Shown here: positions 5,911-52,721 of the stretch, piece by piece | Layout of the letters: the number at the start of each line of letters is the position of its first letter | Position numbering within the stretch: position 1 is the stretch's first letter | Assembly (NCBI GenBank): GCA_903889895.1 | Contig: CAISYZ010000257.1 | Location: forward strand, 6,196 to 70,195 | Direction: 5' to 3' | Length of the DNA: 64,000 bases | Source: an uncultured Verrucomicrobia subdivision 3 bacterium | Lineage (GTDB): Bacteria > Verrucomicrobiota > Verrucomicrobiia > Limisphaerales > UBA11358 | Made by a program: the position numbers and the translations under genes | Notes under the pieces: model-generated | Databases searched by the model: none | What the model was told of the DNA's origin: nothing | The model's input: the letters and a program-made list of their open reading frames with translations, nothing else

Positions 5911-7323
5911 TCACCGCGCGTTGCCGAGTTCCGCTGCCAAATCTTCCACCGTCCAATTTTTCCGCGTGAGCGAAAGTTTGTCCGCCGCTGCGCCGTGTTG
6001 CCAGACCGCGTAGCGCAACGTTTTTTCCGCATCCGCCGCCAACGCCGGTTGCGCCAGCAATCCCGCGATGAAGCCGCCGAGCAAATCGCCGCTGCCGCCC
6101 TGCGCGAGGTGCGCGTTCCCGGAGCTGTTCACGAAAATGTTTCCCTCGTCGCGGCCGATCAAAGTCTGGTGGCCTTTCAGCACCACCCAAGCGCCGCCGA
6201 ATTTTTTGGACAGCTCGCGCAGCGCCGCCACGCGGTTTGCCTGCACGTTGGCCGCCGTGGTTTTGAGCAACCGCGCCGCCTCGCCGGGATGCGGCGTGAG
6301 CACGCGTGTGAAATTTTTCTGGAACGGCTCCGCGTCCAGCACGTCCAGCGCGCTGGCATCCACCACCAGCGGATACGCCGCGCTGCGCCAAAGATAGCGC
6401 GTGAATTTTTTTAAAGGCTCAAAAACTTCCGGCGCGGCCAGCCCCGGCCCGACCAGGGCGGCAGAGGTTTTTTCCGGCAGCTTGGTTTCCGGCTTCCATT
6501 GGTTCACCATCGCCGACTGCAATTGCGCGGCGACTGGATGATAAACGTCCGGCTGCGGGAACACCGTGACCAGTCCCGGCTGCGCCCGTTGCGCGCCGCG
6601 CGCCGCCAGCACCGCCGCGCCGTGGTAGCCGAAGCTGCCGGCGACAATCGCGACGTGGCCGAAATCGCCTTTGTTGCCGGCCGCCGTGCGCGCGGGCGGA
6701 AAATGTTCAAAATCCTCCGGTTGCGTCCAGTTCAACTCCGCTTGCAGCGGGCAGGGGACAAGGCCGACTTCTTCCGTCACTTCAAGTTTGCCGACGAACG
6801 GCCACGCAGCGGGCGTGAGCAGGCCGGTTTTCGGCGCGCCGACAGTTATCGTAATGGTTGCCTCGATGGCCGCACCGAAAGTTTCGCCGGTGTCGGCGTT
6901 CAGGCCGGACGGCACATCAATCGCAAGGACGGGAATTTTGGCGGCGTTGATGGCGGCAATGATTTGCAGCCACGCCTCGGAGAGCGGACGGTTTAACCCG
7001 GTGCCGAACAGTCCGTCCACGATGAGCGCGGGCTTTTCCTTGAGCGCGGATTCGAGCGGCAGCAGGTCGGTGTCCGGCAGGAACATTTCCAGCACTTCGC
7101 CCTCGCGGCCTTCGAGTTGTTTGGCGGCGGCGCGGGCGTCGTCGCCGTTGTGGCCTTTGCCGAGGAGAAAAAGAATCATATCGCCGGCGCGGGTAAGCTT
7201 GCGGGCGCGGCGGGCAACGCGTTGGCCGACGCGGCGGATGATCTCCGCCTCGGTCTGGCCGGTGGCCCAGGTGGCGGTTTCCCACGCGCGCATCTGGGCG
7301 GTGCTGATGACGGGAATCGGCAT
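5911..7323 (-). CDS. nnr: Bifunctional NAD(P)H-hydrate epimerase/dehydratase (YjeF)
   Basis: GKGHNGDD, DGLFGTG, DVPSG, NKGDFG, TPHPGEAARL, GGSGDLLGG. Confidence 0.93.
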   Translation of the reverse strand: MPIPVISTAQMRAWETATWATGQTEAEIIRRVGQRVARRARKLTRAGDMILFLLGKGHNGDDARAAAKQLEGREGEVLEMFLPDTDLLPLESALKEKPALIVDGLFGTGLNRPLSEAWLQIIAAINAAKIPVLAIDVPSGLNADTGETFGAAIEATITITVGAPKTGLLTPAAWPFVGKLEVTEEVGLVPCPLQAELNWTQPEDFEHFPPARTAAGNKGDFGHVAIVAGSFGYHGAAVLAARGAQRAQPGLVTVFPQPDVYHPVAAQLQSAMVNQWKPETKLPEKTSAALVGPGLAAPEVFEPLKKFTRYLWRSAAYPLVVDASALDVLDAEPFQKNFTRVLTPHPGEAARLLKTTAANVQANRVAALRELSKKFGGAWVVLKGHQTLIGRDEGNIFVNSSGNAHLAQGGSGDLLGGFIAGLLAQPALAADAEKTLRYAVWQHGAAADKLSLTRKNWTVEDLAAELGNAR

Positions 7324-7559
7324 GGCGGCAGCATAAACTTTTTGCCGGCGCGCAAAAAGGGGAAATGTATTACCTCCGTGGTGGCGGCAAAAAAGGTTTA
7401 AAAATTCGCTCGAAACGGGGAGTCATGGCTGGACCTTTTTGGAAATATCTTTTTGGAATCGGAATGAAGGCTTCGGGACAAATATCCATCCGGGCACCGC
7501 AAACCAGCGGCGGGGCCGCCATTTTTTATAGAGGCTTTTCCCGTGGGGCCGTCGTCCGT

Positions 7560-7780
7560 CCCCAATTGTCGGACCATTTTCCCCAATTACGAAGCACCGC
7601 CCCCAATTTACCAACGGTCGTCCCCATTTTTTGGATGGCTCCCCCCAATTCCCCGAAGGCTCCCCCCATTTGCCGGGGCACCGCCCCCAATTTTTTAGCC
7701 TCTCCCCCCAATTTTCGGAGGGTTCCCCCCAATTTCCCGACGACCTCCCCCAATTTTTTTACCGCCACTCCGGTTTTTAA
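7560..7780. repeat. Degenerate 21-bp-period tandem array 1, core CCCC(C)AATT plus ~12 variable nt, ~10 units
   Basis: First A after the C-run at 7564, 7585, 7605, 7626, 7647, 7668, 7689, 7710, 7731, 7752. Confidence 0.9.
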
Positions 7781-7836
7781 CAGCCTGTTTACCAGCCAGT
7801 TGCGTATGATTTGTCGGTTTTTAACCCCCTTGAACC

Positions 7837-8697
7837 ATGCGAATCGCGTATTTCGATTCCGGCGATCCGGAAATGCACTTCGACAATCCGAACTTAATTT
7901 GGTCCGACCCATCGTATCTGCGTGAGCCGGGCGATCCCGGTTACATACCACCCTCTCCACCACCGACCCCAACCACTAAACATAAAATGAAAACTCCGCA
8001 CTGCCCCGTCCCTGTCATCATCCACAACGGCAACCTCATCGTCGCCGCCGCGAACAAATATCCCAAGGTCGCTGCCCGGATGCCCGCCAACTATCTCGCC
8101 GAGACGACCACAGCCCTCGGCAAACTGCCCACCGACATCACCGGCCAGAAAATTGCCCAAGGCGAGACCGGCAACCTCACTGCCGCGCAACAAGCCAACC
8201 TCGATTCGCTGCTGCATTGCATGAGCCAGGCCCGCAAGACTGCCAAACTCGCCTTTCCCGGCCAGACCGTGAAGTTGCATCAGGAATTTCAAATCGGCAC
8301 CCACGATTCACACGAGCTGAATGCCGTGTTGAGCCGCGCCGACATCATTCTGGCCTCCGTGCAAACCACGGCGAACCTACCCGCGCTGAAACTCAAAGGC
8401 TGGACCGATGCCGAAACGCAAACCTTCACCACCGTGCGCGGCACGTTTCCCGCCAGCACCACCACGCAGCAATCCGGCCAGAGCGACGCCAAAAAGGCGA
8501 CCGCCACGAAAGCCGCCGATGCCGCCGATGCCTACGAACATCTGTTGACCATCCAAAACGCCGCCGACTTGGAATTTCCCGCCACGAACGCGGCCAACGC
8601 CCCGATCCGCGCCGAATTCCGGCTGGGCATATTCCCGCCCGATCACCACACCCCGCCCGAACCGCCAACGCCGGCGCCCGTGACTGCGAAGCCGTGA
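7837..8697 (+). CDS. Hypothetical protein: 50-aa leader plus two helical repeats; array-1-associated
   Basis: Plausible codon usage, Pro-rich linker and tail, internal Met at 7987; no recognised family. Confidence 0.8.
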   Translation: MRIAYFDSGDPEMHFDNPNLIWSDPSYLREPGDPGYIPPSPPPTPTTKHKMKTPHCPVPVIIHNGNLIVAAANKYPKVAARMPANYLAETTTALGKLPTDITGQKIAQGETGNLTAAQQANLDSLLHCMSQARKTAKLAFPGQTVKLHQEFQIGTHDSHELNAVLSRADIILASVQTTANLPALKLKGWTDAETQTFTTVRGTFPASTTTQQSGQSDAKKATATKAADAADAYEHLLTIQNAADLEFPATNAANAPIRAEFRLGIFPPDHHTPPEPPTPAPVTAKP

Positions 8698-8920
8698 GGT
8701 TTATTCCAAGATAGTCAGTTGAGTATTTGTGCGGCGTGAAGGCCGCGCCGCGACTGCTTTCGTGATAATAGCCCAGCCATTGCTGGCTGGGAAAATATGC
8801 CATCGAACTTCCAAGTCCTGTCATGGATGGTAGACAATTTTCTTTCGTCCCTAATTGGACTGGGGTGCTGCTACGTGAGAGAGCTGGACAGAAATCACCA
8901 GGGGGAATATGGTTGGAAGC

Positions 8921-9577
8921 ATGAAACGAATGGGGCACCAAGTCCGTGTTTTGTTTTTTTTCCTATTTGGGCTGGTTCCGGTGGGTTGGGCGCAAATAGC
9001 TGAGATTTCCCCGTTTCATATTCTGCCCGAGGACGTGGTTCCCGACAGCGTCCGTCTGGTTCGTTTTAACACCAATTTTTTTGCCGTCCGGTGGACTTAT
9101 ACGGAAGCCGGCGCGCAAAAGTTTCTGGCGTTCAATGAAGCCCACGCCGGGCAGCGGGCGTGCACGGTGGTGGGGGATTATGAGACGCGGCCGTTCGAGG
9201 TCCGGTTCACGCCCATGCCCGAGTTCACCAACTATGCCGCCTGGAAGGCGGGCTGGCTCCGGCATCCGACCGACAAATTTTTCGGGCTGAACGAAACCGA
9301 AGTCACGGCTATCGCCGCCGCTCTGAGGTATGGCGATCCAAAATTCAGGTGTCTTTCAATCACCAATCCAGCCGCCGCGCCCATCAAGGGAATCCTGACG
9401 GATCCTAATTTTCGGATGGTGATTCACGCGCTGGAGCAAAGAAGCGGTTATGAAAATTTGGCGGAGCCGGAAGTAACCACGAGTTCCGGGCGGGGGCAAA
9501 ATTCCATCCGCATCCAAAATCTGGACTGGAATGTTATCGCCCCTATTACCAACCCGCCGCCCGCATTGGCTAAATAG
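8921..9577 (+). CDS. Exported hypothetical protein (SecDF-head-like N-part, secretin-like C-terminal fragment)
   Basis: Signal peptide; 'TEAGAQKF..F...HAGQ'; 'GILTDPNFRMVIHALEQRSG...AEPEVTTSSGR'. Confidence 0.6.
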   Translation: MKRMGHQVRVLFFFLFGLVPVGWAQIAEISPFHILPEDVVPDSVRLVRFNTNFFAVRWTYTEAGAQKFLAFNEAHAGQRACTVVGDYETRPFEVRFTPMPEFTNYAAWKAGWLRHPTDKFFGLNETEVTAIAAALRYGDPKFRCLSITNPAAAPIKGILTDPNFRMVIHALEQRSGYENLAEPEVTTSSGRGQNSIRIQNLDWNVIAPITNPPPALAK

Positions 9578-9596
9578 CTTGCCGCCGCAGGCGTGC

Positions 9597-9634
9597 TTCA
9601 CTGTTCCGTCACCCAATCGTCACACGGTTGTCAC
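9597..9634 (+). promoter_or_regulatory. Pho-box-like direct repeats upstream of phoB
   Basis: TTCAC/GTCAC/GTCAC/GTCAC at 9597, 9608, 9619, 9630 (11-bp spacing). Confidence 0.75.
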
Positions 9635-9679: not shown

Positions 9680-10360
9680 GTGAAACCGCGAATTTTAGTT
9701 GTGGATGACGAGCCGGAAGCGGTGGAACTCGTCGAGTTTAATTTGAAGCAGGCCGGTTATGCCGTCACCACGGCGGCGGACGGCGCGGAGGCGCTCAAAA
9801 AGGCGCGCGGCCAGGTGCCCGACCTGATCATTCTGGACGTGATGTTGCCGGAGATGGACGGCTTTGAGATCTGCAAGACGCTGCGCCTCGACGCGGCCAC
9901 GGCCAAGGTGCCCATCATCATGCTCACGGCCAAAGCGGCGGAGATTGACCGCGTGCTCGGCCTGGAACTCGGCGCGGACGATTATCTGACCAAGCCGTTC
10001 AGCCCGCGCGAGCTGCTCTTGCGCGTGAAAAAAATCCTCGCCCGTTTCCAGACCGAGGAAAAGCCGAAGGAACAACTGCGCTTCGGCGATTTGCTGATTG
10101 ATTTGCCGCGCCACATCGTGAGCTGGAAGAACAAGCCCATCGAGATGACGGCGACGGAGTTCAAGCTCATCACCGTCCTGGCGCAGCGCGCGGGCCGCGT
10201 GCAGTCGCGCGACCAGCTTTTGCGCGATGTGTGGGAATACGACAGCCTGATTGACACCCGCACGGTGGACACGCACATGCGACGTCTGCGCGAAAAAATC
10301 GGCCCGGCCTCCAAGCATCTGGACACGGTGCGCGGCGTGGGCTACCGGTTTGTGGAATGA
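9680..10360 (+). CDS. phoB: OmpR/PhoB-family response regulator
   Basis: Receiver plus winged helix, 'TRTVDTHMRRLREK', 'TVRGVGY'; next to PhoR-like kinase and Pho box. Confidence 0.85.
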   Translation: MKPRILVVDDEPEAVELVEFNLKQAGYAVTTAADGAEALKKARGQVPDLIILDVMLPEMDGFEICKTLRLDAATAKVPIIMLTAKAAEIDRVLGLELGADDYLTKPFSPRELLLRVKKILARFQTEEKPKEQLRFGDLLIDLPRHIVSWKNKPIEMTATEFKLITVLAQRAGRVQSRDQLLRDVWEYDSLIDTRTVDTHMRRLREKIGPASKHLDTVRGVGYRFVE

Positions 10361-10433: not shown

Positions 10434-11606
10434 ATGTGGCTTTTTCTTTTCATTCTCGCGCTCGCGGCGCTGGCCGGACTCCATTTCCGATGGCGGGCCA
10501 AGTTTCAGGCGCAGCGCGAGCAGCGCGCGGCGGAGATGGAGGCTTTTCAACGCAAGCAGCAGCAGACCTCGCTGGACGCGCAGGCGCAGCAAAAAGTTTT
10601 GTTCGATTCCATGCTCGAAGGCCTGCTGCTCCTCGACCGCAGCCGGAAGATTTACCTCGCCAATCGCACATTCAAAAGCCTGTTCGGCGTCAAGACCGAG
10701 CTGCGCGGCAAAACCGTCGTCGAGGCGCTGCGGTTGCACGAACTGGACGGCCTGCTCCAGCGCGCCGAAACCGAGAAGCAGGTGCTCGACTACGAAATCA
10801 AATTGCCGGGACTCGCCGAGCGTTGGTTGCAGGTGAACGCCGCCGCCATCACGAACGCCGCCGGCGAGCGCGACGGAACGATTCTGGTTTTCCACGATTT
10901 GACGCGGCTAAAACAGCTTGAGCGGCAGCGCGAAGAATTCGTCGCCAACGTCAGTCACGAGTTGCGCACGCCGCTTTCGCTCATCAAAGGCTACGTTGAA
11001 ACGTTGCTGGACGGAGCCAAAGACAATCCCGAAGTGGCCGAGCGTTTTCTGAAAATCATTGAGCGCAACGCGAACCGGCTGGATTTGCTCATCCAGGATT
11101 TGTTGACGATTTCCGCGCTGGAATCCGGGCGGATGAAACTGGAATTGTCGCCGGTGGATTTGCACGCGCTGACGGACAAAGTCCTGACGTTCCTGCACAC
11201 CAAGGCGGAAAACAAAAACGTCACGCTGATCAACGAACTGCCGGCACTCACGATGAATGCCGACGCGAACCGGCTTGACCAGGTGCTTGCGAACCTCGTG
11301 GACAACGCCATCAAATATGGCCGTGCGGAAGGCCTGGTCATCGTTGGTGGAAAAAAACTGGCCGATGGTGCGCTGGAAATTTTTGTGCGTGATGACGGGC
11401 CGGGCATTCCGGCGGAAGCGTTGGAGCGCGTGTTTGAAAGGTTTTATCGCGTGGACAAGGCGCGTTCGCGTGATCAGGGCGGCACCGGTTTGGGACTGGC
11501 GATTGTGAAACACATCGTCCACGCCCACGGTGGCGAGGTGCGCGTGGAAAGCGAACCGGGCAAGGGCGCGACGTTTTTCTTCACACTGCCGCAGCCATCT
11601 ATTTAG
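10434..11606 (+). CDS. phoR: PhoR-like sensor histidine kinase (TM, PAS, HisKA, HATPase)
   Basis: 'EFVANVSHELRTPL', 'FERFYRVDKARSRDQGGTGLGLAIVKH'. Confidence 0.85.
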   Translation: MWLFLFILALAALAGLHFRWRAKFQAQREQRAAEMEAFQRKQQQTSLDAQAQQKVLFDSMLEGLLLLDRSRKIYLANRTFKSLFGVKTELRGKTVVEALRLHELDGLLQRAETEKQVLDYEIKLPGLAERWLQVNAAAITNAAGERDGTILVFHDLTRLKQLERQREEFVANVSHELRTPLSLIKGYVETLLDGAKDNPEVAERFLKIIERNANRLDLLIQDLLTISALESGRMKLELSPVDLHALTDKVLTFLHTKAENKNVTLINELPALTMNADANRLDQVLANLVDNAIKYGRAEGLVIVGGKKLADGALEIFVRDDGPGIPAEALERVFERFYRVDKARSRDQGGTGLGLAIVKHIVHAHGGEVRVESEPGKGATFFFTLPQPSI

Positions 11607-11904
11607 CAGCAGATTTTTTCTTGGCGGGAGCACGCTTGCGTGCCATTGCCTTTTTGATTTGTGCCGTGCGTTGCGGGTCGGGCGAATCCAACCCATCCAG
11701 CAAGCGGTTGGGGCTGGTTTCAAGAAATTGCGCCAACCGTGCAAAGGTGGTGAGCGCAATGGGATAACTTCCGCGCTCAATATGCCCGATGGTTTTCCAA
11801 TGCACCCCCACCAATTCAGCGAGACACTCCTGCGTCAAGTTGGCTTTCAACCGGGCTTCGCGGAAGTTTCGCCCAATCAATCGGAGCATTTGCTGGTTCT
11901 TCAC
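11599..11904 (-). CDS. XRE-family HTH transcriptional regulator
   Basis: 'LTQECLAELVGVHWKTIGHIERG' HTH. Confidence 0.8.
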   Translation of the reverse strand: MKNQQMLRLIGRNFREARLKANLTQECLAELVGVHWKTIGHIERGSYPIALTTFARLAQFLETSPNRLLDGLDSPDPQRTAQIKKAMARKRAPAKKKSAAK

Positions 11905-11975
11905 TCGGCATAATGGAATAGATATGCTCCTTTATTGACACTCCGCATACATTCCGTTAATTAAATGATGTCCGT

Positions 11976-12182
11976 ATGAAAATTAGCGAAGCAAAGGCCT
12001 TGGAAATGCGGCGGGGGAACCAACCGTGCAATTACCCATTTCTCGAAATGGAGCGTGATGAAATAGGAACTTCAACCGGCGATTATGTCTGCACGCGATG
12101 CGGTAAAGCTGGCTGGGACGGCGACTGGAACAAACTGCGTGAAAACAAGAAGAACCCAGAACAGAGGCAACGGAACTCCTAA
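11976..12182 (+). CDS. Small hypothetical zinc-ribbon-like protein
   Basis: 'PCNYP...TGDYVCTRCG'; ATG start behind a TTGACA element at ~11935. Confidence 0.6.
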   Translation: MKISEAKALEMRRGNQPCNYPFLEMERDEIGTSTGDYVCTRCGKAGWDGDWNKLRENKKNPEQRQRNS

Positions 12183-12209
12183 CCTTTGAAAAACCAACAT
12201 ATTCGCATT

Positions 12210-12683
12210 ATGAAAACAAAACACATCATCGCCTTGAAAGGCCCGGTCAATGTTGGCAAAAGCACAACAATCAGGAAAGTCTTTGCGCTTTTGAAGGAAG
12301 CCTACCCGACTGCACATATTCTGATATTCAACCCAAAGGGAATTGAAATCACTGTGACCATCGAAGTTGACATCACTGTGATCATAGAGATTAACGGGAC
12401 ATCCGTCGGCATGGAGAGTTGTGGCGACGCGCCGCCATATCACAACAGGCTTATTGAGAGCATTGAGCGGTTCAAGAAAGCCAAGTGTAGCATTATCCTC
12501 TGCGCCACGAGAACTAGCGGCATTTCAGTCACCACTGTCGAAAACTTTCAACGCGAACAGCCAGAATTCAGGCTTGTTTGGTATCACAATAAAGCGGAAC
12601 CCCAAGTCAACTTGCGTGAACAGCGCGATGACGCGATGGCACAGACTATCTTCAAGCAAATCCAGAATGCACTAAACACCTAA
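12210..12683 (+). CDS. Small P-loop NTPase-like hypothetical protein
   Basis: Walker A 'IIALKGPVNVGKSTT'. Confidence 0.7.
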   Translation: MKTKHIIALKGPVNVGKSTTIRKVFALLKEAYPTAHILIFNPKGIEITVTIEVDITVIIEINGTSVGMESCGDAPPYHNRLIESIERFKKAKCSIILCATRTSGISVTTVENFQREQPEFRLVWYHNKAEPQVNLREQRDDAMAQTIFKQIQNALNT

Positions 12684-12686
12684 CCT

Positions 12687-14165
12687 ATGAAAAATCTATT
12701 CCTATTGCCCGCACTGTTTGTCAGTCTCGGCTTGATTGCCGCGACCACAGATTGCCTTCACGCCGCCACCTTCAACGTGACGACAGCGAACATTTCCGGC
12801 CCGGGATCTTTGCCGGTCGCAATCGCACAGGCGAACGCCACGCCGGGGAGGAATCAAATCAAAATCTCCGTGACGAATGTCATCACGCTTGGATTGCAGT
12901 TGCCCACGATTACGAACAGCGTGGCAATCGCCGGCATTGCCGCAGTTCCCTCAATTATCAGCGGAGGCGGAGCCTTGCCGCTGTTCGCTTTTGCTGCGGG
13001 AACAACGAACAGCCTGTCAAACCTCGTGCTTGCCAATGGCTATACGACGAATAGTGGAGCGGCGATCAGCAATGCCAGCATTCTTTCGGTGAGCAGTTGT
13101 GTTATCACTAATCACGATTCTTTTTTTGGTTCAGGTGGAGCAATAATCAATAGTGGTGTGATGACAATTTCCTCCTCTGTAATATCTGGCAATCAAGCTG
13201 ATACTGGAAGCGGAGGCGCAGTTTATAATTCTGGCACGATGGCCCTGAACAAGTCTCAGTCGTCAGATAATCGAGCAGGAAATGGGGGGGCAATTTTTAA
13301 CGCCGGGACTTTAGCGGTTTCCATTTTCGTAATGTCCAACAATTTAGCTGAGGCAGGATTTGGGGGAGGCATATACAACACAGGTGCTTTGAGTGTTTCA
13401 CAATCAACATTTTTAACAAACACTGCAAAAGTTGTTTCTGGCATTGGCGGAGCGTTATTTATTTATTCTGGCACAGTCGCAATTACAAACTCTACATTCT
13501 GTCAAAATGTAGCAGGCGAAGGCGGTGCCGTAGAAATGCAGAGCGGATCTTGCATATTGGTCAACTGCACTATTGCCAACAATTTGTCATCAGTTGGCGG
13601 CGGCATCAGCGTCTATAACACTGTGGTTTCGCTCATAAATACGATTGTTGCTGGCAACAGCGCATCAAGCAGCAGCCCAGACCTTAAAGGAGCATTCGTC
13701 AGCAGTGGCGTCAACTTGATCGGCAACAACCAAGGGGCAACGGGCTTGAGTCTTTTTGATTTTCAGAACGTGGCTGCCAATCTCGGCCCTTTGCAAAACA
13801 ACGGTGGCCCAACTCTGACTTGCGCTCCGCTTCCGGGCAGCTATGCCATCGGTTACGGCACCAGTGCCGGTGCGCCAACAACCGATCAGCGCGGCGTGCC
13901 GCGTCCGCCAAACGGAGCCTATGACATTGGAGCCGTGCAAACGGTCACAAATTCTCCCTACCTGATGAGCAGTGCTTTTATCAAGGGAGTCGGGTTCACG
14001 TTGGATTCCATTTTCGATGCCAGCAACAAGTATCGAATCCAGTCCTCCACGAATTTGGCGGCATGGATTGATCTTTACACCAACACGAGCAGCGGGGTTT
14101 TGCATTTTACTGACACAACCGCCACCAACTTGAGCCGTCGTTTTTATCGCACGGCAAAACCGTGA
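12687..14165 (+). CDS. Secreted beta-helix (Pmp/pectin-lyase-like) protein with choice-of-anchor Q domain and verrucomicrobial C-terminal tail
   Basis: GGAI/GGAV repeats, 'LGPLQNNGGPT', 'TDQRG.PRP...DIGAVQ', 'STNL..W...FTDT..TN..RRFYR'. Confidence 0.85.
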   Translation: MKNLFLLPALFVSLGLIAATTDCLHAATFNVTTANISGPGSLPVAIAQANATPGRNQIKISVTNVITLGLQLPTITNSVAIAGIAAVPSIISGGGALPLFAFAAGTTNSLSNLVLANGYTTNSGAAISNASILSVSSCVITNHDSFFGSGGAIINSGVMTISSSVISGNQADTGSGGAVYNSGTMALNKSQSSDNRAGNGGAIFNAGTLAVSIFVMSNNLAEAGFGGGIYNTGALSVSQSTFLTNTAKVVSGIGGALFIYSGTVAITNSTFCQNVAGEGGAVEMQSGSCILVNCTIANNLSSVGGGISVYNTVVSLINTIVAGNSASSSSPDLKGAFVSSGVNLIGNNQGATGLSLFDFQNVAANLGPLQNNGGPTLTCAPLPGSYAIGYGTSAGAPTTDQRGVPRPPNGAYDIGAVQTVTNSPYLMSSAFIKGVGFTLDSIFDASNKYRIQSSTNLAAWIDLYTNTSSGVLHFTDTTATNLSRRFYRTAKP

Positions 14166-23194: not shown

Positions 23195-25524
23195 TTTTGC
23201 TTCCATCGCAGCAGCCGCAGTGCGTTGCCAATGACGATCAAATCCGAAATGCCCATCGCCGCCGCGCAGAAAATCGGGCTGATGACGCCGCACGCCGCCA
23301 GCGGCACGCCGAGCGCGTTGTAAAAAAAAGCCCAGAACAAATTTTGCTTGATGGTGCGCAAAGTCGCGCGCGCCAGACCGAGCGCCTCCGGCACGGCTTC
23401 AATTTCTGATTTCAGCAGGATAATATCCGCCGCCTCGCGCGCCACGTCGCTCGCACGGCTCACTGCGATGCCGAGGTCAGCCTGCGTCAGCGACGGCGCG
23501 TCGTTGATGCCGTCGCCCACGAACGCCACGCGCTCGCCGCGCGACGGGGGCGTCGCGCCCACATTCTGCGACGGGGCGTCACAGCCACGCGCTTGAAGTT
23601 TTTTCACAAACTCCGCCTTTTGTTCCGGTCGCACTTCGGTAAACACATTTTCCGCCGCGATGCCGACTTGCTTGGCGATGCTGGCCGCCGTGAGTGAGTT
23701 GTCGCCGGTGATCAAATAGATTTTCAGCCCGTGCTGCTGGAGCTGTTTCACGACCTTCGCCGAATGCGTTTTCACCGTGTCGCGCACGGCGAAGAGGCTG
23801 AGCAATTCCTTTTCCGCCGATAGGCCGACAATTGTCGTGCCCTGCGCCGTCCATTCGGCGATAAATTTTTCGCCCGCCGCCAAATCCACGCCGCCTTCGC
23901 GTAGCCAGCTGAGCGAACCGAGGCGAATTTCCGATTTCCGATTTCCGATTGCCGATTTGGCTTCCACGCCGCAGCCGCAAATTTCCCTCCAGTCGGTAAA
24001 TTCAACTTTGTCCGAAGAAATTTTTGCAATCGCCTGACTGATTGGATGCGTGGAATTTCTGGCGAGCGCCGCCGCCAGTTTTTCCAATTGGCAATTGGCA
24101 ATTGGCAATTGGCAATCTAGCTGTGCGGCCACTTCCGGTTTGCCCAGCGTCAGCGTGCCGGTCTTGTCAAAAACCACCGCCGTGATTTTGCCGGCTTTTT
24201 CTAAGGCCACACCATCGCGGATCAAGATGCCGCGTTTCGCAGCGGTGTTCGCGCTCGCCATGATGGCGGCGGGTGTGGCCAAACCCATCGCGCAGGGACA
24301 CGCGACAATCAAAACACTGGCGGCGATGACAAATGCCTTGTCCGCGCCGGAATGGACAAACCAAAAGATGCCCGCTGCCAGCGCGATGGCGACGATAATC
24401 GGCACGAAGACGTTGCTGATGCGGTCGCCGAGGCGCTGGATGTCGGCGCGACTGGTCTGCGCGCGTTGCACGGCGGCGATGATGTGTGCCAGTGCGGTGG
24501 CTTCGCCGGTGGCGGTCACGCGCATAATTAGGCGACCGTTTAGATTCACCGTGCCGGCAAACAGTTCAGTGCCGGATTTTTTATCGGCGGGAACGGATTC
24601 GCCGGTGAGCATGGCTTCGTCCACGGCTGATTCGCCCTCCAGCACCACGCCATCCACCGGCACGCGGTCACCGGGGCGGAGCGCGAGACGGTCGCCTATT
24701 TTTAATTCCGCCACAGTGACATCAATTTCCACTTGCTGGTTCGGTGCCTGTCCGGAAGGACTTGCCGATTGCCGATTGCTGATTGCCGATTTGGGAAATG
24801 ACAATTTGCGAAGGTCAAACGGCTGGCCGGTCTGATTTGAAATTTGATATTCGGGATTTGAAATTCTTCGGGCCGTCTGCGGCGCGAGCTGCAACAAGGA
24901 TTTTAGCGCGCTGCTCGCTTTGTCGCTGACGCGCGCTTCAATCCAGTGGCCGGCGCTGATGAGCGAAATGATGGCGGCGGCTTCCATGAAATAGAGGTGT
25001 CCGCAACTGCTGCTGAACAAAACCCAGCAACTGAAGCCGAACGCCGTCGTGGAGCCGAGCGCGACGAGCGCGTCCATGTTGGACTGACCGACTTTGATTT
25101 GCCGCCACGCGCCGCGATAAAACTGCGCGCCGCAAAAAAGTTGCACGACGGCGGCGAGCGCAAACGACAGCCAGCGGAACCAGCCGGTCATCATCAGGCC
25201 GAAACCCCATTCGCCAACCATCAGCGCGGTGGTGACGGCGAGGCCGAGGATCAGATTCCATTGCCAGCGGCTTTGCCGCGCCGGTTCGCCGGATTTTTCG
25301 GGAACAATTTCTTTTGCCGCAAAACCGGCCTTGGCAATGGCGGTGAGAATTTCCGGAACACTCTTCGCTTCGGCGGAATGCCAGCGCACACTGGCGCGTT
25401 CCGTCGCCACGCTCACGCTGACGCTGTGGACGCCGGTGATTTTCTGCGCGGCCTCGGTGACTTTGCGGGCGCAGTTGTTGCAGGTCATGCCGGTGACGCG
25501 CAGTTCGGTGGTGGGCAGAGCCAT
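23191..25524 (-). CDS. copA: Cu(I)-type P1B ATPase carrying several in-frame repeat insertions
   Basis: HMA GMTCNNC, TGES, CPC, DKTGTLT, GDGIND, YN motif. Confidence 0.9.
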   Translation of the reverse strand: MALPTTELRVTGMTCNNCARKVTEAAQKITGVHSVSVSVATERASVRWHSAEAKSVPEILTAIAKAGFAAKEIVPEKSGEPARQSRWQWNLILGLAVTTALMVGEWGFGLMMTGWFRWLSFALAAVVQLFCGAQFYRGAWRQIKVGQSNMDALVALGSTTAFGFSCWVLFSSSCGHLYFMEAAAIISLISAGHWIEARVSDKASSALKSLLQLAPQTARRISNPEYQISNQTGQPFDLRKLSFPKSAISNRQSASPSGQAPNQQVEIDVTVAELKIGDRLALRPGDRVPVDGVVLEGESAVDEAMLTGESVPADKKSGTELFAGTVNLNGRLIMRVTATGEATALAHIIAAVQRAQTSRADIQRLGDRISNVFVPIIVAIALAAGIFWFVHSGADKAFVIAASVLIVACPCAMGLATPAAIMASANTAAKRGILIRDGVALEKAGKITAVVFDKTGTLTLGKPEVAAQLDCQLPIANCQLEKLAAALARNSTHPISQAIAKISSDKVEFTDWREICGCGVEAKSAIGNRKSEIRLGSLSWLREGGVDLAAGEKFIAEWTAQGTTIVGLSAEKELLSLFAVRDTVKTHSAKVVKQLQQHGLKIYLITGDNSLTAASIAKQVGIAAENVFTEVRPEQKAEFVKKLQARGCDAPSQNVGATPPSRGERVAFVGDGINDAPSLTQADLGIAVSRASDVAREAADIILLKSEIEAVPEALGLARATLRTIKQNLFWAFFYNALGVPLAACGVISPIFCAAAMGISDLIVIGNALRLLRWKQK
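23540..23588. repeat. REP-like palindrome doublet in frame within copA
   Basis: CGCGACGGGGGCGTCGCGCCCAC and TGCGACGGGGCGTCACAGCCAC; extra peptide before RVAFVGDG. Confidence 0.7.
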
Positions 25525-25694: not shown

Positions 25695-26005
25695 CCTTTG
25701 CCAAAACCTTTGGAACGGCTGGGAAACCTTTGGGAACGCTTTCCAAACCTTTCGGAAGGCTTCCAAAACCTTTGGTAACGTCTAAAAGGTTTTGGAAATG
25801 TTTCCAAAAAGTTTTGGAAGACTTTCGGCGGAAAACAAGATGCGCCATTAACATTAAAGTTTTTTCCAAAGGTTTTTGAAGGCTTTCCAAAACCTTTTTT
25901 AGAGACAAAAGAAGGTTTAGAAATGTTTCCGAAACCTTTGGTAACGGCTAAAAAGGTTTTAGAAATGTTTCCAAAAGGTTTTGGAGACTCGCCAAAGGTT
26001 TTGAC
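25695..26005. repeat. Degenerate 21-bp-period tandem array 2, quasi-palindromic unit TTCCAAAA(CC/GG)TTT(T)GGAA, ~13 units with a gap near 25825-25860
   Basis: Consecutive units tttccgaaacctttggtaacg / gctaaaaaggttttagaaatg / tttccaaaaggttttggagac / tcgccaaaggttttgacaaag. Confidence 0.88.
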
Positions 26006-26325
26006 AAAGCCCCCCGATTCTGGTCAAAACCGCTCGAAAATGGGTGAAAACCGCATTTTTTGCCTCGCCCGGCGACTTTGCGGCCGCGGCCAAGGCATTG
26101 GCGGCTTGGTTTTAACCGGCATTAACCTCGCCAATTTTACTCCCTATCCGCAGCGGTTGGGGAGCAAGCCGGCTGGTCGCGCCTAAATCGGATGAAGGCG
26201 GAGGTGAGGTGCCACTCAACTGTTTCTTGCAACTATCAATTTTCCCGCGCAAACTCGCCGCTGTCCGAAATAAAAACAACGACCAAATATATTAACTAAA
26301 CAATTTGCGTAGCTACGGCTACGGG

Positions 26326-26505: not shown

Positions 26506-27702
26506 ATGGCACACGACAATCTCAAAAACGCAAAACGGGCAAGGAACGACGAGTTCTACACTCAATACGCCGATATTCAGAAGGAGATTGAAGCGTATCT
26601 GGAATACGATGCCGATGTGTTCCGGGGCAAGGTGGTTTATTGCAATTGCGACGATCCGTTTGAGAGCAATTTCTTCCGCTACTTCATTCTCAATTTCAAA
26701 AAGCTCGGTTTGAAGCAGCTCATTACCACCAGCTACAAACCTTCGCCCGTGGCAAATACGCAACTGGAATTGTATGGCGATGACAACACGCTCCCAAAAG
26801 CAAAAGGTCGTCCGAAGTTAACGGCCAATAAATTTATCATCAATGAAGTGCATGACATTGACGGGGGCAGCGAATTCAACTTGAAATCCGTGGCCAGAAA
26901 GTTAAAGGCCAACAAAAACAACGAGTGGACTCCGCTGGAAGGCGACGGCGATTTTCGCAGTGCCGAGTGCATCGAACTGCTGAAACAATCCGACATTGTG
27001 GTGACCAACCCACCGTTCTCTTTGTTTAAGGAGTATGTTGCCCAGCTCGTGGAATACGGGAAAAAATTCCTAATCATCGGCAACACCAATTCAATTACCT
27101 ACTTGGAGATTTTCCCACTTATTAGGAACAACAAAATTTGGCTGGGTTGCACAAATTTCAATGTCGGAATGTTTTTCAAGGTGCCCGACGACTGGGAGCG
27201 CTTTCACCACATTGACGATGAGACGGGCTGGAAAATAGCGCGAGTTTCAACGTCGTGTTGGTATACAAACCTCGACCACGGTCGCCGCCATGAGCCTTTA
27301 AACCTCATGACTATGGCAGAGAACCTTAAATATAGTAAAAACCTGAAAGGAAAGTCAGCGTATGACCGCTACTTCAACTACGATGCGATTGACGTCGGCA
27401 CCTATAAGGAAATTCCCAGCGACTACGATGGCGTAATGGGCGTCCCAGTAACCTTCCTCGACAAATATAACCCTGACCAATTTGAGATAGTCGGAAACAG
27501 TGACGACGGCAGTATGATGCGCGAGCTTGGAGTCCGAGCCCTTGGTCATAAATTCATTAGCGCATATCGCGCTCGCGGAGGCACTGGCCACTATAGTCCT
27601 GGCATGCGAATGCTTGGTCTGCTCGAACCTCAGGCACGAATCATCTTCAAGCGCCTCCTAATCCGGCATCGCACGAAGCCCACCAAACTAGAGAAAAGAT
27701 GA
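26506..27702 (+). CDS. Adenine-specific DNA methyltransferase, EcoRI family
   Basis: NDEFYT, YCNCDDP..SNF, GDGDFRS.EC, VTNPPFSLF, MGVPVTFLDKYNPDQF. Confidence 0.9.
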   Translation: MAHDNLKNAKRARNDEFYTQYADIQKEIEAYLEYDADVFRGKVVYCNCDDPFESNFFRYFILNFKKLGLKQLITTSYKPSPVANTQLELYGDDNTLPKAKGRPKLTANKFIINEVHDIDGGSEFNLKSVARKLKANKNNEWTPLEGDGDFRSAECIELLKQSDIVVTNPPFSLFKEYVAQLVEYGKKFLIIGNTNSITYLEIFPLIRNNKIWLGCTNFNVGMFFKVPDDWERFHHIDDETGWKIARVSTSCWYTNLDHGRRHEPLNLMTMAENLKYSKNLKGKSAYDRYFNYDAIDVGTYKEIPSDYDGVMGVPVTFLDKYNPDQFEIVGNSDDGSMMRELGVRALGHKFISAYRARGGTGHYSPGMRMLGLLEPQARIIFKRLLIRHRTKPTKLEKR

Positions 27703-28868
27703 AGACCACACTCCAAATCGACATCACCGTCGCCGACATCTGCGATGGCTTTGTTTACAACGAACTGGAAGGCAAGGGGCTTTTCGGTTTGTCCGGCAAA
27801 CTCACAATTCAGCCGGAATATCAGCGTAATTATATTTACGCTGCCGACGGCGGTAAAAAAGAGGCGGCGGTCATCGAATCCGTTCTCAATCGCTATCCGC
27901 TGGGGTTGATTTATTTCAATAAAGTGGCTGAAGACAAATTTGAAGTTTTGGACGGACAACAGCGCATCACCAGTCTTGGGCGTTTCATTGCCGGCAAATT
28001 TGCCATCAAAGATGAGGATGGCAATGAGCAGTATTTCAGCGGCATGGCAAAGGACAAGCGGGACAGAATTTTAGAAACCGAGCTGACGATTTACGAATGT
28101 GAGGGCAAGGAAAGTGAAATTAAAAAATGGTTTGAGACAATAAACATTGTCGGCGTCCCGCTCAATAAGCAGGAATTGCTCAACGCCATTTTTTCCGGTC
28201 CGTTTGTGACGCTCGCCAAGGCGGAGTTCAGCAACAGTCAAAATGCCAACATCCAGAAATGGAGCGCGTATGTTTCCGGCAGTGCCAACCGACAGCAATT
28301 TTTGGAATGTGCGCTGGATTGGGTGAGCAATGGCGACATCAGCGGTTACATGAGCCAGCATCGCAAAGATAAAAACATCAAAGAACTAAAAACCTATTTT
28401 AACACCGTCATTGATTGGGTGTCTGGTGTGTTTACAGAAGTTGAAAGCGAAATGTGCGGGCTGGAGTGGGGACGACTTTACGAAACATATCACCAGAAAG
28501 CATACAATCCCGCGAAGGTTTCGGCGGAAGTGCAGAAGCTATATGAGGATTCCTATGTTTCTGACAAACGTGGCATTTTTGAGTTCATCTTGGGCGGCTC
28601 AAAAGATACCAAGCTGCTGAATGTCCGGGTCTTTAATGAGGCAACGAAGAAATCCGTTCATGTCACGCAGACTAAAAAGGCCAAAGCGGAAGGGAAATCA
28701 AATTGCCCGCATTGCGCCATTGGGCATGATGCAAACAAAGCCAAAATTTGGGATCTCAAAGACATGGATGCCGACCATGTGGCTGCGTGGAGCAAAGGCG
28801 GCGGGACAAATGTTAAAAACTGCCAGATGTTGTGCAAGACGCACAACCGCGCAAAAGGCAATCGGTAA
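27699..28868 (+). CDS. DUF262 (GmrS/ParB-like) plus HNH endonuclease, putative restriction enzyme
   Basis: QPEYQRNY, DGQQRITS, C-terminal CxxC...DH...GG.T...NCQMLC..HN..K; overlaps methylase stop. Confidence 0.88.
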   Translation: MKTTLQIDITVADICDGFVYNELEGKGLFGLSGKLTIQPEYQRNYIYAADGGKKEAAVIESVLNRYPLGLIYFNKVAEDKFEVLDGQQRITSLGRFIAGKFAIKDEDGNEQYFSGMAKDKRDRILETELTIYECEGKESEIKKWFETINIVGVPLNKQELLNAIFSGPFVTLAKAEFSNSQNANIQKWSAYVSGSANRQQFLECALDWVSNGDISGYMSQHRKDKNIKELKTYFNTVIDWVSGVFTEVESEMCGLEWGRLYETYHQKAYNPAKVSAEVQKLYEDSYVSDKRGIFEFILGGSKDTKLLNVRVFNEATKKSVHVTQTKKAKAEGKSNCPHCAIGHDANKAKIWDLKDMDADHVAAWSKGGGTNVKNCQMLCKTHNRAKGNR

Positions 28869-33294: not shown

Positions 33295-34062
33295 TCAGGT
33301 GCTCATGCAGTTCACCGATGGGCAGTAATCGCTGGCCAAGTTTCCGCCGCCGAGGGCGCAAGCATCCACCGTATAGACCTTGCCCGGCGTCAGGTCGGGC
33401 AAAACAATGTTCAGCGTGGACGAAAAATTCTTGGTATAGACCAACGCGCCCGCCGCGTCGCGCACGCGCAGCAGATAGCCGCGCGCATGGGCCGAACCTT
33501 GCAGCTTCACCCCGAGGCTGCCGCTGCCCTTGTTGAAGAGGTTCACGATGGCTGGCACATCCGGGGTCATCGCGGCGTGATGGGCGGGAATAATCACGTC
33601 GAAGCCCGACAACATCGCCTGCTCCGGGGTGATGCCTGGAATGGCCTCGATGTAAGCCGCGAGCTGTCGGAGCAAAGCGATCAGAATTTCCTTCTTGGCG
33701 TTTTTGTCGGCAGTGAGCGGTTTGCCAAGGTTGGACGCGGCGGCATCGGCATCATGAAACGCGCCTTGGGCGGCGTCCAGATTGGCGATGGGGAAGGGCG
33801 GGTCTTTGAAGATGGCCGCATTCTTCGTCATCTGCGTGGCCACGTTGCTGGCGAATTTGTCCAGCGGCAGATCCATCAATTGCGCGAACGCGAGGGAGAT
33901 ATGGAACAGCATAACTTTTTTATTGGTCGGCTGGGGAGCCACGGGCGCGTCGTAATAAACCTTGTCCCCCCACTTGTAAGGCTGCCCGGTCAACGGATTG
34001 ATTCCGTTCCAAACCGCGCCATATTTTACGGGGTCGCTCATGCTCTCGTTCCAGCCAGGCAT
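33295..34062 (-). CDS. Hypothetical protein: 50-aa leader, helical domain, C-terminal fibronectin type III-like domain; array-3-associated
   Basis: 'L..LTPGKVYTVDA.A.GG...SD' FN3 signature; internal Met at 33912; upstream TTGACA at 34179-34174. Confidence 0.8.
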   Translation of the reverse strand: MPGWNESMSDPVKYGAVWNGINPLTGQPYKWGDKVYYDAPVAPQPTNKKVMLFHISLAFAQLMDLPLDKFASNVATQMTKNAAIFKDPPFPIANLDAAQGAFHDADAAASNLGKPLTADKNAKKEILIALLRQLAAYIEAIPGITPEQAMLSGFDVIIPAHHAAMTPDVPAIVNLFNKGSGSLGVKLQGSAHARGYLLRVRDAAGALVYTKNFSSTLNIVLPDLTPGKVYTVDACALGGGNLASDYCPSVNCMST

Positions 34063-34230
34063 TGGATATTTGGGGAACGCCTTCTACTCTGCCAAAAAAG
34101 CGTCGGCACCACAATAATTAATTTCAATAAATGTAATATAAAACGCTATAATCTATAAGATAAGAAAATCCTATGTCAACCGCCCGGCGGCCGAGGTTGA
34201 CGTCCCCGCCACCGCCCGCGAGCGGGTGGG

Positions 34231-34482
34231 CAGCTTGATTCAGGCCAGCGGGCGCTTGGTCTTGGACGGCGTTTCCTTGGTCAAGAATGGGGCTTCCTTA
34301 CTTAAAGATGCGGCTGCGTCGGTTAAGGAAATGATTTCCTCGGTCAAGGAAGCGCCAACCTTAACTGAGGATGAGATTTCCTTAGGTAAGGAAGCGGCAA
34401 TCTTGATTAAGGAAACGATTTCTTTAAATAAGGAAGCGCCTTCGTCGGTTAAGGAAGGCGCTTCCTTAACCGACTTTTCGGA
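34231..34482. repeat. Degenerate 21-bp-period tandem array 3, unit TTCCTT-N4-AAGGAA-N5, 10 clear plus 2 decayed units
   Basis: Unit starts 34273, 34294, 34315, 34336, 34357, 34378, 34399, 34420, 34441, 34462. Confidence 0.92.

Positions 34483-51622: not shown

Positions 51623-52721
<1,099 letters not shown>

Follow-up and report, generated by a model that had tools for sequence, protein, structure and literature searches.

Introduction

Direct repeats that are phased at about two helical turns and lie beside the gene of their ligand are found in plasmid iterons and in parC-type centromeres. Autoregulation has been demonstrated for KfrA of plasmid RA3, a helix-turn-helix (HTH) protein whose five 9-bp repeats, located on the plasmid, overlap the -35 and -10 boxes (PMC7783346). 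In type III toxin-antitoxin systems, the repeats are 34-36 nt or longer, form pseudoknot RNAs and are followed by a terminator and then by an endoribonuclease (PMC5086642). Bacterial tandem repeats of constant size (20-21 nt) and variable sequence have been published by Subirana and Messeguer; the part of that publication available to us gives neither a function nor an identified ligand (PMC8161180) and reports no link between array and gene, and the corresponding part of PMC6749651 holds nothing further on this class. A literature search that stopped short of the 2020 J. Bacteriol. paper by the same authors, which is possibly relevant, found no description of the array-gene pairing that is presented here.

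The locus studied here belongs to a family of promoter-leader-array-gene cassettes of about 1.3 kb, and lies in a 64,000-nt stretch of DNA (hereafter, the window) from a Verrucomicrobiota genome. KfrA and the type III toxin-antitoxin systems are its nearest working models, and both fail on defining features.

Results

Layout of the array and of the cassette

The boxes of the window array start at positions 7560, 7581, 7601, 7622, 7643, 7664, 7685, 7706, 7727 and 7748, with inter-box steps of 21, 20 and then seven times 21 bp. These positions bear out the sequence-only reading, in which ten phased CCCC(C)A(A/T)TT boxes with a single 20-bp step had been described. Given that a first step of 20 bp is kept in most relatives, it is not an assembly error. 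All ten spacers differ, as had been claimed, and their mean pairwise identity is 39%. The spacer length of about 12 nt given earlier holds only at the 20-bp step, the regular steps leaving 13 nt. The periodic segment stops 59 nt upstream of the ATG at 7837, which agrees with the end at about 60 bp ahead of it that had been proposed. The number of boxes in the window is only mildly high (12 against 5.7 expected, with 0 of 100 shuffles reaching 12); the strong signal is the phasing, the lag-21 identity being 0.64 in the window array. The array is non-palindromic (dyad z = 1.7), and its sense strand is C-rich and G-poor (C 0.41, G 0.15).

Table 1. Features of the cassette, of the insertion that contains it and of its chromosomal flanks (window coordinates).
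Feature	Position	Strand	Basis
yjeF / NAD(P)HX epimerase-dehydratase, left chromosomal flank outside the cassette	5911..7323	-	Pfam YjeF_N, Carb_kinase
Lineage-specific insertion of about 2.2 kb, from yjeF to the phoB promoter (junctions approximate)	7369..9600	+	Both flanks match the empty site of relatives
5' leader region of the window copy	7369..7559	+	blastn: no match to the leaders of relatives
Period-21 array	7560..7768	+	Ten units of 21 bp (one of 20 bp): box CCCCA(A/T)TT and 13-nt spacer
Conserved 3' tail of the array	7769..7810	+	Gap-free alignment in most of 42 close homologues
Trp/Pro-rich N-terminal module, 50 aa, optional	7837..7986	+	Present in some homologues; also on unrelated array-linked genes
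Gene body: 236-aa all-helical protein, internal duplication, Pro/Thr tail	7987..8697	+	AlphaFold pLDDT 94
REP-like short dispersed palindromic repeat	8760..8865	.	blastn matches on several other contigs of the genome
Cargo gene inside the insertion, unknown function	8909..9577	+	ORF; no Pfam match; missing from empty sites
phoB-like response regulator, right chromosomal flank	9680..10360	+	ORF; 86-95% identical genes adjoin yjeF in relatives

Most close homologues have a TTGAC and, 17 nt further on, a -10-like hexamer rich in A, with an invariant CATG about 14 nt beyond it. Next come a leader of about 130 nt, which contains a single small hairpin, then the array and its short conserved tail, and last the gene. 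TTGA and CATG are invariant in 31 orthologues, in which the -35/-10 spacing is 17 nt, and homology among the cassette copies stops at the stop codon of the gene. No match to a sigma-70 consensus was found in 7369..7559. As the window leader is not homologous to the promoter and leader of the relatives, the window copy looks chimeric. In the relatives, the conserved promoter-like motif suggests that the array is co-transcribed with the gene. No terminator-like site was detected on the plus strand between 7770 and 7836; weak matches lie before the array, inside it and at the start codon. The single RNA run (X20, kept as contigs) covered the gene with three short contigs and did not reach the array, a coverage too thin to be of use.

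Linkage of the array to the gene

An array was detected upstream of the gene at 78 of 79 distinct homologous loci and downstream of it at none of 61, against a background of 2%. The threshold is a lag-21 identity of at least 0.5 within 800 nt, the background being the share of random 800-nt segments of the genome that reach 0.5; 65 of the 79 loci pass at 0.55. One locus (L016) has the gene without an array. On a quick protein tree, in which rows L051 and L100 are mistranslated, the box follows protein distance: CCCCA(A/T)TT is found at about 78% identity and above, and GCCGC or CCCGCG and GCCCCG are found further out; the paralogue on contig C33 has a GCCCCG array. With L016 and eight second-position genes set aside, residue 6 of the protein is C or Y at all 41 CCCCA loci and F at all 15 GCCGC or CCCGCG loci; as counter-cases, three altered-box loci retain C at this position. 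Seven loci (L088, L080, L089, L118, L123, L015 and L126) have a gene for a basic helical protein of 140 aa between the array and the cassette gene, and the box differs at six of them, the exception being L126 with a GCCCCG box. At four of these six loci, the proteins are 95-97% identical to ones that have their own box elsewhere. The same type of 140-aa helical gene occurs as downstream cargo in L103. The co-variation of box and protein is confounded by shared ancestry.

The family is patchy, being present in 10 of 40 relatives and in 2 of 300 genomes of the phylum. Three records titled Bifidobacteriaceae (L107, L111 and L123) contain alleles nested among the Verrucomicrobiota copies, and L107 matches a metagenome locus (L031); these records are probably mislabelled.

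Inheritance and constraint of the units

The units align one to one in 42 close homologues, with 11-12 units per array and inter-box steps of 21 (288 times), 20 (47 times) and 22 bp (16 times). One strain, from a different study, is short of precisely one 21-nt unit (a single contig at depth 5). Four further DNA runs showed no unit change over the parts covered, one of them having two spacer substitutions. The units of the window copy are reshuffled relative to those of the relatives. The comparison of orthologous loci that had been recommended yielded point drift, whole-unit loss and unit shuffling, and no polar gain of spacers.

In a parsimony analysis of 31 orthologues, columns 1-4 of the box change 0.2-1.3 times, compared with 4.3 times for spacer columns and 3.4 times for third positions of the gene. 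In the same set, the wobble base of the Pro codon in the box has 0.4 changes, compared with 2.0 at C-ending four-fold sites of the gene. The spacers drift at about the neutral rate, and the CCCC core is kept even at wobble positions. These tree-based counts indicate that the box is conserved as bases and the spacers are conserved as length.

The layout of conserved boxes and variable spacers, adjoining a gene of unknown function, had been likened to a miniature guide array. While the layout itself stands, a CRISPR- or TIGR-like array with acquired spacers is extremely improbable and appears from these comparisons to be already largely refuted: the units are positionally orthologous between species and show no polar gain, and the spacers are mutually alike (39% identity), with no excess of matches elsewhere in the genome. 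Among the families and folds searched, the adjacent protein matches no defence or nuclease one, a result that a new type of effector would also give.

Coding potential

One open frame per strand had been noted, giving heptads in both cases. PNF (plus strand) and KLG (minus strand) are indeed open, but two plus-strand frames are free of stops in the array. The proposed check for synonymous-site bias gave none in either open frame, with dN/dS of 1.07 for PNF and 1.00 for KLG, so that the array is not an ordinary repeat protein. The same pairwise comparison, which covers 38 of the 42 homologues (the other four have non-homologous leaders), gave 0.72 for PQF, 0.59 for the leader frame and 0.32 for the gene. 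Counted on the tree of 31 loci, the gene shows 1.71/1.20/3.43 changes by codon position, the array 3.36/3.45/2.94 and the leader 3.86/3.64/4.29, with p = 0.19 for the leader excess.

Leader and array might still be translated, either as a heptad-repeat peptide or as an upstream ORF that acts by its translation and not by its sequence. The ATG about 129 nt ahead of the first box is invariant, and in many loci its frame passes the 20-bp step into the PNF register. The frame is also preserved by leader indels of -30, -6 and +39, and dN/dS is below 1 in the leader and PQF frames. In the window copy, the ATGs at 7365, 7425 and 7464 share the PNF frame. A 40-bp step is however present in 9 of 42 loci, as is a 2-nt internal deletion; the deletion is offset by a further 1-nt loss in three lineages, which speaks for the frame, but several lineages have no compensation, other loci are frame-shifted too, and the stop position is scattered among homologous loci. 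Similarly, open frames across the arrays exceed those of a column-permuted control (120 against 94), an excess which stop content accounts for, as it predicts 118, and stops are not depleted across 25 oriented arrays (199 against 191). Given, in addition, the PNF and KLG values near 1 compared with 0.32 for the gene, the flat codon-position profile of the array, the weak excess in the leader and the absence of a coding or amphipathic signal in 67 of the 69 arrays of the genome, translation of the leader and array is judged to be very unlikely.

Seven-bp tandem repeats were also observed inside coding genes of the window (heavy-metal ATPase, murG-like) at 23927-23958, 24085-24116, 24762-24865 and 52135-52168, where they add in-frame residues.

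RNA features

The sense strand of the window array folds no better than shuffled sequences (z = +0.93). In the leader hairpin, one pair is changed on both sides in 11 of 30 sequences and broken in 4 of 30; a compensatory change is seen in only 2 of the 10 predicted leader pairs, and Rfam gave no match. If the array acted as RNA, it would form a transcribed leader with little structure. Its repeated boxes would be bound by the downstream protein or by a host factor such as Rho, and it would serve as an attenuator or an antitoxin-like RNA. We regard this as unlikely. The position of the array between the promoter-like motif and the gene in the relatives, the composition of the sense strand here without excess folding, and the two-sided pair change are in its favour, but the few compensated pairs, the broken hairpin pair and the negative Rfam search are not. 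Furthermore, C exceeds G in only 16 of the 25 oriented arrays of the genome, the period is fixed at two DNA turns without an obvious RNA reason, and the protein matches no nuclease family or fold.

The cassette protein

The structural model of the gene body (pTM 0.70) is a two-repeat helical bundle, the two halves of which are homologous and align at 95% probability. The protein is distantly related to a named family. NF052641, the PQLLE family of NCBIfam, gave a weak profile match in 56 of 71 alignment members, the best member having E = 6.7e-12. The window protein itself scored 17.1 bits (E = 0.0033) against a curated cut-off of 80 bits, and this low score indicates a distant sister family. 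PQLLE-type genes in the order have period-21 arrays with unrelated boxes at 8 of the 11 loci examined (11 of the 17 listed). In a second phylum, that of an Ignavibacteriota record (G511), PQLLE-type loci have the array upstream in 14 of 27 cases and downstream in 1 of 26, the remaining 13 of the 27 lying below the array threshold.

Pfam, PHROGs and PADLOC gave no family common to the alignment. The PDB sequence search gave no match under E 0.3, the plasmid search gave no match, and the ESM Atlas returned only unnamed clusters. No significant fold match was obtained with Foldseek (best E of 0.2 in the PDB and 0.07 among viral structures); the best VIA hits were generic helical bundles (Z 8.5), and Avd and Xcc0516, at Z of about 7, are within noise. 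No HTH, winged helix or ribbon-helix-helix was detected by profile or fold search. The median net charge (K+R-D-E) is 0 and the pI is about 7, and this zero net charge counts against simple DNA binding.

Two further candidates were discarded. DUF6261, which was a lead only (0.87), was not found in this genome, and its control gave no match anywhere. The helical repeat showed weak homology, or none, to the N-terminal domains found in array-linked FN3 families (best 11%). The optional 50-aa N-terminal module, for which no family match was found, is fused to different array-linked gene families (L003, L004, L012 and L013).

Insertion site and cargo

Among the best 29 of 57 genomes with a match, every congeneric yjeF locus lacks both cassette and array, and phoB lies no more than 1.5 kb from yjeF in 21 of them. 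Positions 7369-9600 are therefore an insertion. The gene on the right flank is named phoB-like from its sequence; a phoB-like gene is also present at three other cassette loci (L083, L084 and L085). At other loci, the housekeeping gene next to the cassette on the upstream side usually differs from one site to the next. MoxR AAA and DUF58 genes are normally adjacent in one operon; at L108:2189-6982, the cassette lies between the two, and the DUF58 site is also used in L116.

In 44 of 53 loci, the ORF that comes first downstream has the same orientation as the cassette; the cargo is varied, comprising BspA-type LRR (5), NHL (3), Kelch, TIR, ParE, TPR and numerous genes of unknown function. A scan of 90 of the 129 listed flanking proteins found a single IS110 gene and no integrase. 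No target duplication is visible, the empty sites being too divergent to judge. One genome has two copies that are 99.2% identical over 1327 bp, from the promoter to the end of the gene, with unrelated flanks, and several pairs of copies share the same upstream site and diverge right after the gene. These sequence patterns fit copies that spread and exchange cargo by host recombination, which is inferred from the fact that no integrase travels with them. An accessory block comprising an HTH gene, a small NTPase-like gene and a secreted repeat protein follows a phoR-like gene at 11599-14165.

Period-21 arrays across the genome

A periodicity scan of the host assembly (76% complete) gave 70 regions at lag 21 and 65 at lag 42, compared with 0-7 regions at each of the remaining lags between 8 and 45. 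Of the 70 lag-21 regions, a single one lies inside a called gene of at least 150 aa. The window array is thus one of about 69 period-21 arrays in this genome. Their unit consensuses are mostly unrelated (about 40 different boxes), with small families common to several arrays. Units are dyad-symmetric in 41 of the 69 arrays (z > 2 against a column-permuted control), a symmetry that would be expected of sites for two-fold symmetric proteins on double-stranded DNA. About 25 of the 69 arrays can be oriented by an uncharacterised gene directly downstream, mostly encoding helical or helical-plus-FN3/Ig proteins, the FN3/Ig label being a sequence pattern for which Pfam gave no match in the window copy. 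As only about 25 can be oriented, many arrays have no cognate gene alongside. A sigma-54 promoter was rejected as a rule of the class, its pattern being found downstream in 0 and upstream in 1 of the 25 oriented arrays (sense strand).

Near-homogeneous arrays, with a lag-21 identity of 0.85-0.98, were observed at C196:40848, C159:1, C260:1 and C2:24812. Several of them stop at contig breaks, so that array number and length are probably underestimated. The window contains two further arrays. The second (25700-26010) has period 21, two blocks and AT-rich, near-palindromic units. Genes for an EcoRI-type methylase and a GmrSD-HNH nuclease lie downstream of it (26506-28868), and no helical gene is called nearby. 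The third (34229-34466) precedes a gene for a helical and FN3-like protein with a Trp-rich N-terminal module (33295-34062, minus strand), whose paralogue on contig C145 has a different box.

Discussion

Box sequence and 21-bp spacing are constrained and spacer sequence is not, and the box changes between gene lineages while the period stays at 21. Taken together, the constraint on the box, the spacing of two turns, the frequent dyads and the one-sided linkage to the gene are best explained by an array of DNA sites. We propose, with a probability of roughly 45%, that the units are helically phased sites which are probably bound by the cassette's own protein, its predicted ligand, and which form an autoregulatory roadblock. 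The boxes, two helical turns apart and free of coding selection, would stand at the front of a promoter-array-gene cassette; the helical protein encoded downstream would bind them cooperatively, and binding would throttle transcription of the cassette and of the cargo genes, by repression or by blocking transcription. This presumes that the upstream motif of the relatives is a working promoter, that the ligand is the cassette's own protein and that the effect is repression or a roadblock. The autoregulation known from KfrA is thus what we propose for the cassette.

Several observations count against this proposal. The window copy has no conserved promoter and its array is non-palindromic, the protein has no HTH match, many arrays lack a neighbouring family gene, and the gene at L016 has no array. 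In addition, 21 bp is exactly the length of 7 codons.

The arrays without an adjacent family gene share boxes with gene-linked ones, and unrelated gene families (helical-FN3, an HTH gene, the 140-aa helical gene) also have arrays. Both facts would suit one general host protein, such as a nucleoid or recombination factor, that measures 21 bp, or else arrays that arose by slippage and act as substrates for recombination, with plain co-inheritance accounting for the tie to the gene; so would the two nearly identical copies at different sites of one genome. Protein polymerisation on such repeats has been proposed in the available part of PMC8161180. Base-level constraint on boxes with distinct spacers, in contrast, is unlike the outcome of slippage or homogenisation, about 40 different boxes per genome are ill-suited to a single sequence-specific host protein, and the arrays lie upstream of the gene and almost never downstream. 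A host factor of this kind is thus an improbable explanation.

Binding of the array by the cassette protein may also be placed in a wider frame, which we put forward as a less likely extension. The cassettes would form a self-contained class that crosses phyla, in which a helical-bundle protein that has no known fold for binding nucleic acids polymerises on its own 21-bp-phased array, the box being rewritten between lineages and the period remaining fixed. Such a class would regulate and anchor the swapping of accessory cargo, and would be the missing ligand system of the constant-size 21-nt repeats. For this published enigma, the locus offers a possible ligand, naturally occurring variants in which box and protein are paired, and a precise expectation for the spacing. 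If binding is true, the protein would be a DNA-recognition scaffold of a new kind, with dozens of specificities already present in one genome, and the cassette a new kind of integrase-free hotspot for accessory genes.

With regard to known systems, the spacers of CRISPR- and TIGR-like arrays are acquired, turned over and mutually unrelated, whereas those described here are orthologous by position and mutually similar. Type III toxin-antitoxin systems (ToxIN, AbiQ, CptIN) resemble the cassette in having a promoter, a repeat array and one gene, with repeat and protein diverging together (PMC5086642). Their repeats are near-identical and measure about 34 nt or more; the units here are however 21 nt long, divergent (spacers 39% alike) and unstructured, and the Rho-independent terminator of these systems between array and gene is absent on the plus strand at 7770-7836. 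The protein is a helical bundle, with an all-helical model and no Pfam, PADLOC or fold match to an endoribonuclease of the ToxN, CptN or TenpN type.

KfrA of plasmid RA3 is likewise an alpha-helical protein with a repeat array ahead of its own gene (PMC7783346). As in KfrA, iteron and parC operators, the repeats adjoin and are linked to the gene of the putative ligand (78 of 79 loci). The cassette differs from KfrA in having 10-12 units of 21 bp, a chromosomal location and no HTH match, and its array does not overlap a promoter: it lies about 130 nt downstream of the promoter-like motif, and in the relatives its first unit is about 130 nt beyond the ATG found downstream of the -35/-10 motif. 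Compared with iterons and parC, there is no Rep or partition NTPase gene, the arrays number dozens and are chromosomal, and the spacers are longer than the box. True members of the PQLLE family (NF052641) also have upstream period-21 arrays, but the cassette protein reaches only 17 bits against the cut-off of 80.

The constant-size repeats resemble the arrays described here in that the unit has a fixed length close to two DNA turns, a genome contains several repeat families, a short core is conserved and the location is mostly non-coding (PMC8161180). In the genome studied, tandem repeats of a single size are likewise numerous (70 regions at lag 21) and their sequence families differ and are mostly non-coding, but instead of a single motif common to most arrays it has many small families with unrelated boxes. 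The present arrays differ from the repeats of PMC8161180 in having a strict period of 21, units that keep their positions from one species to another, and a link, within a cassette, to the 5' side of one particular gene family.
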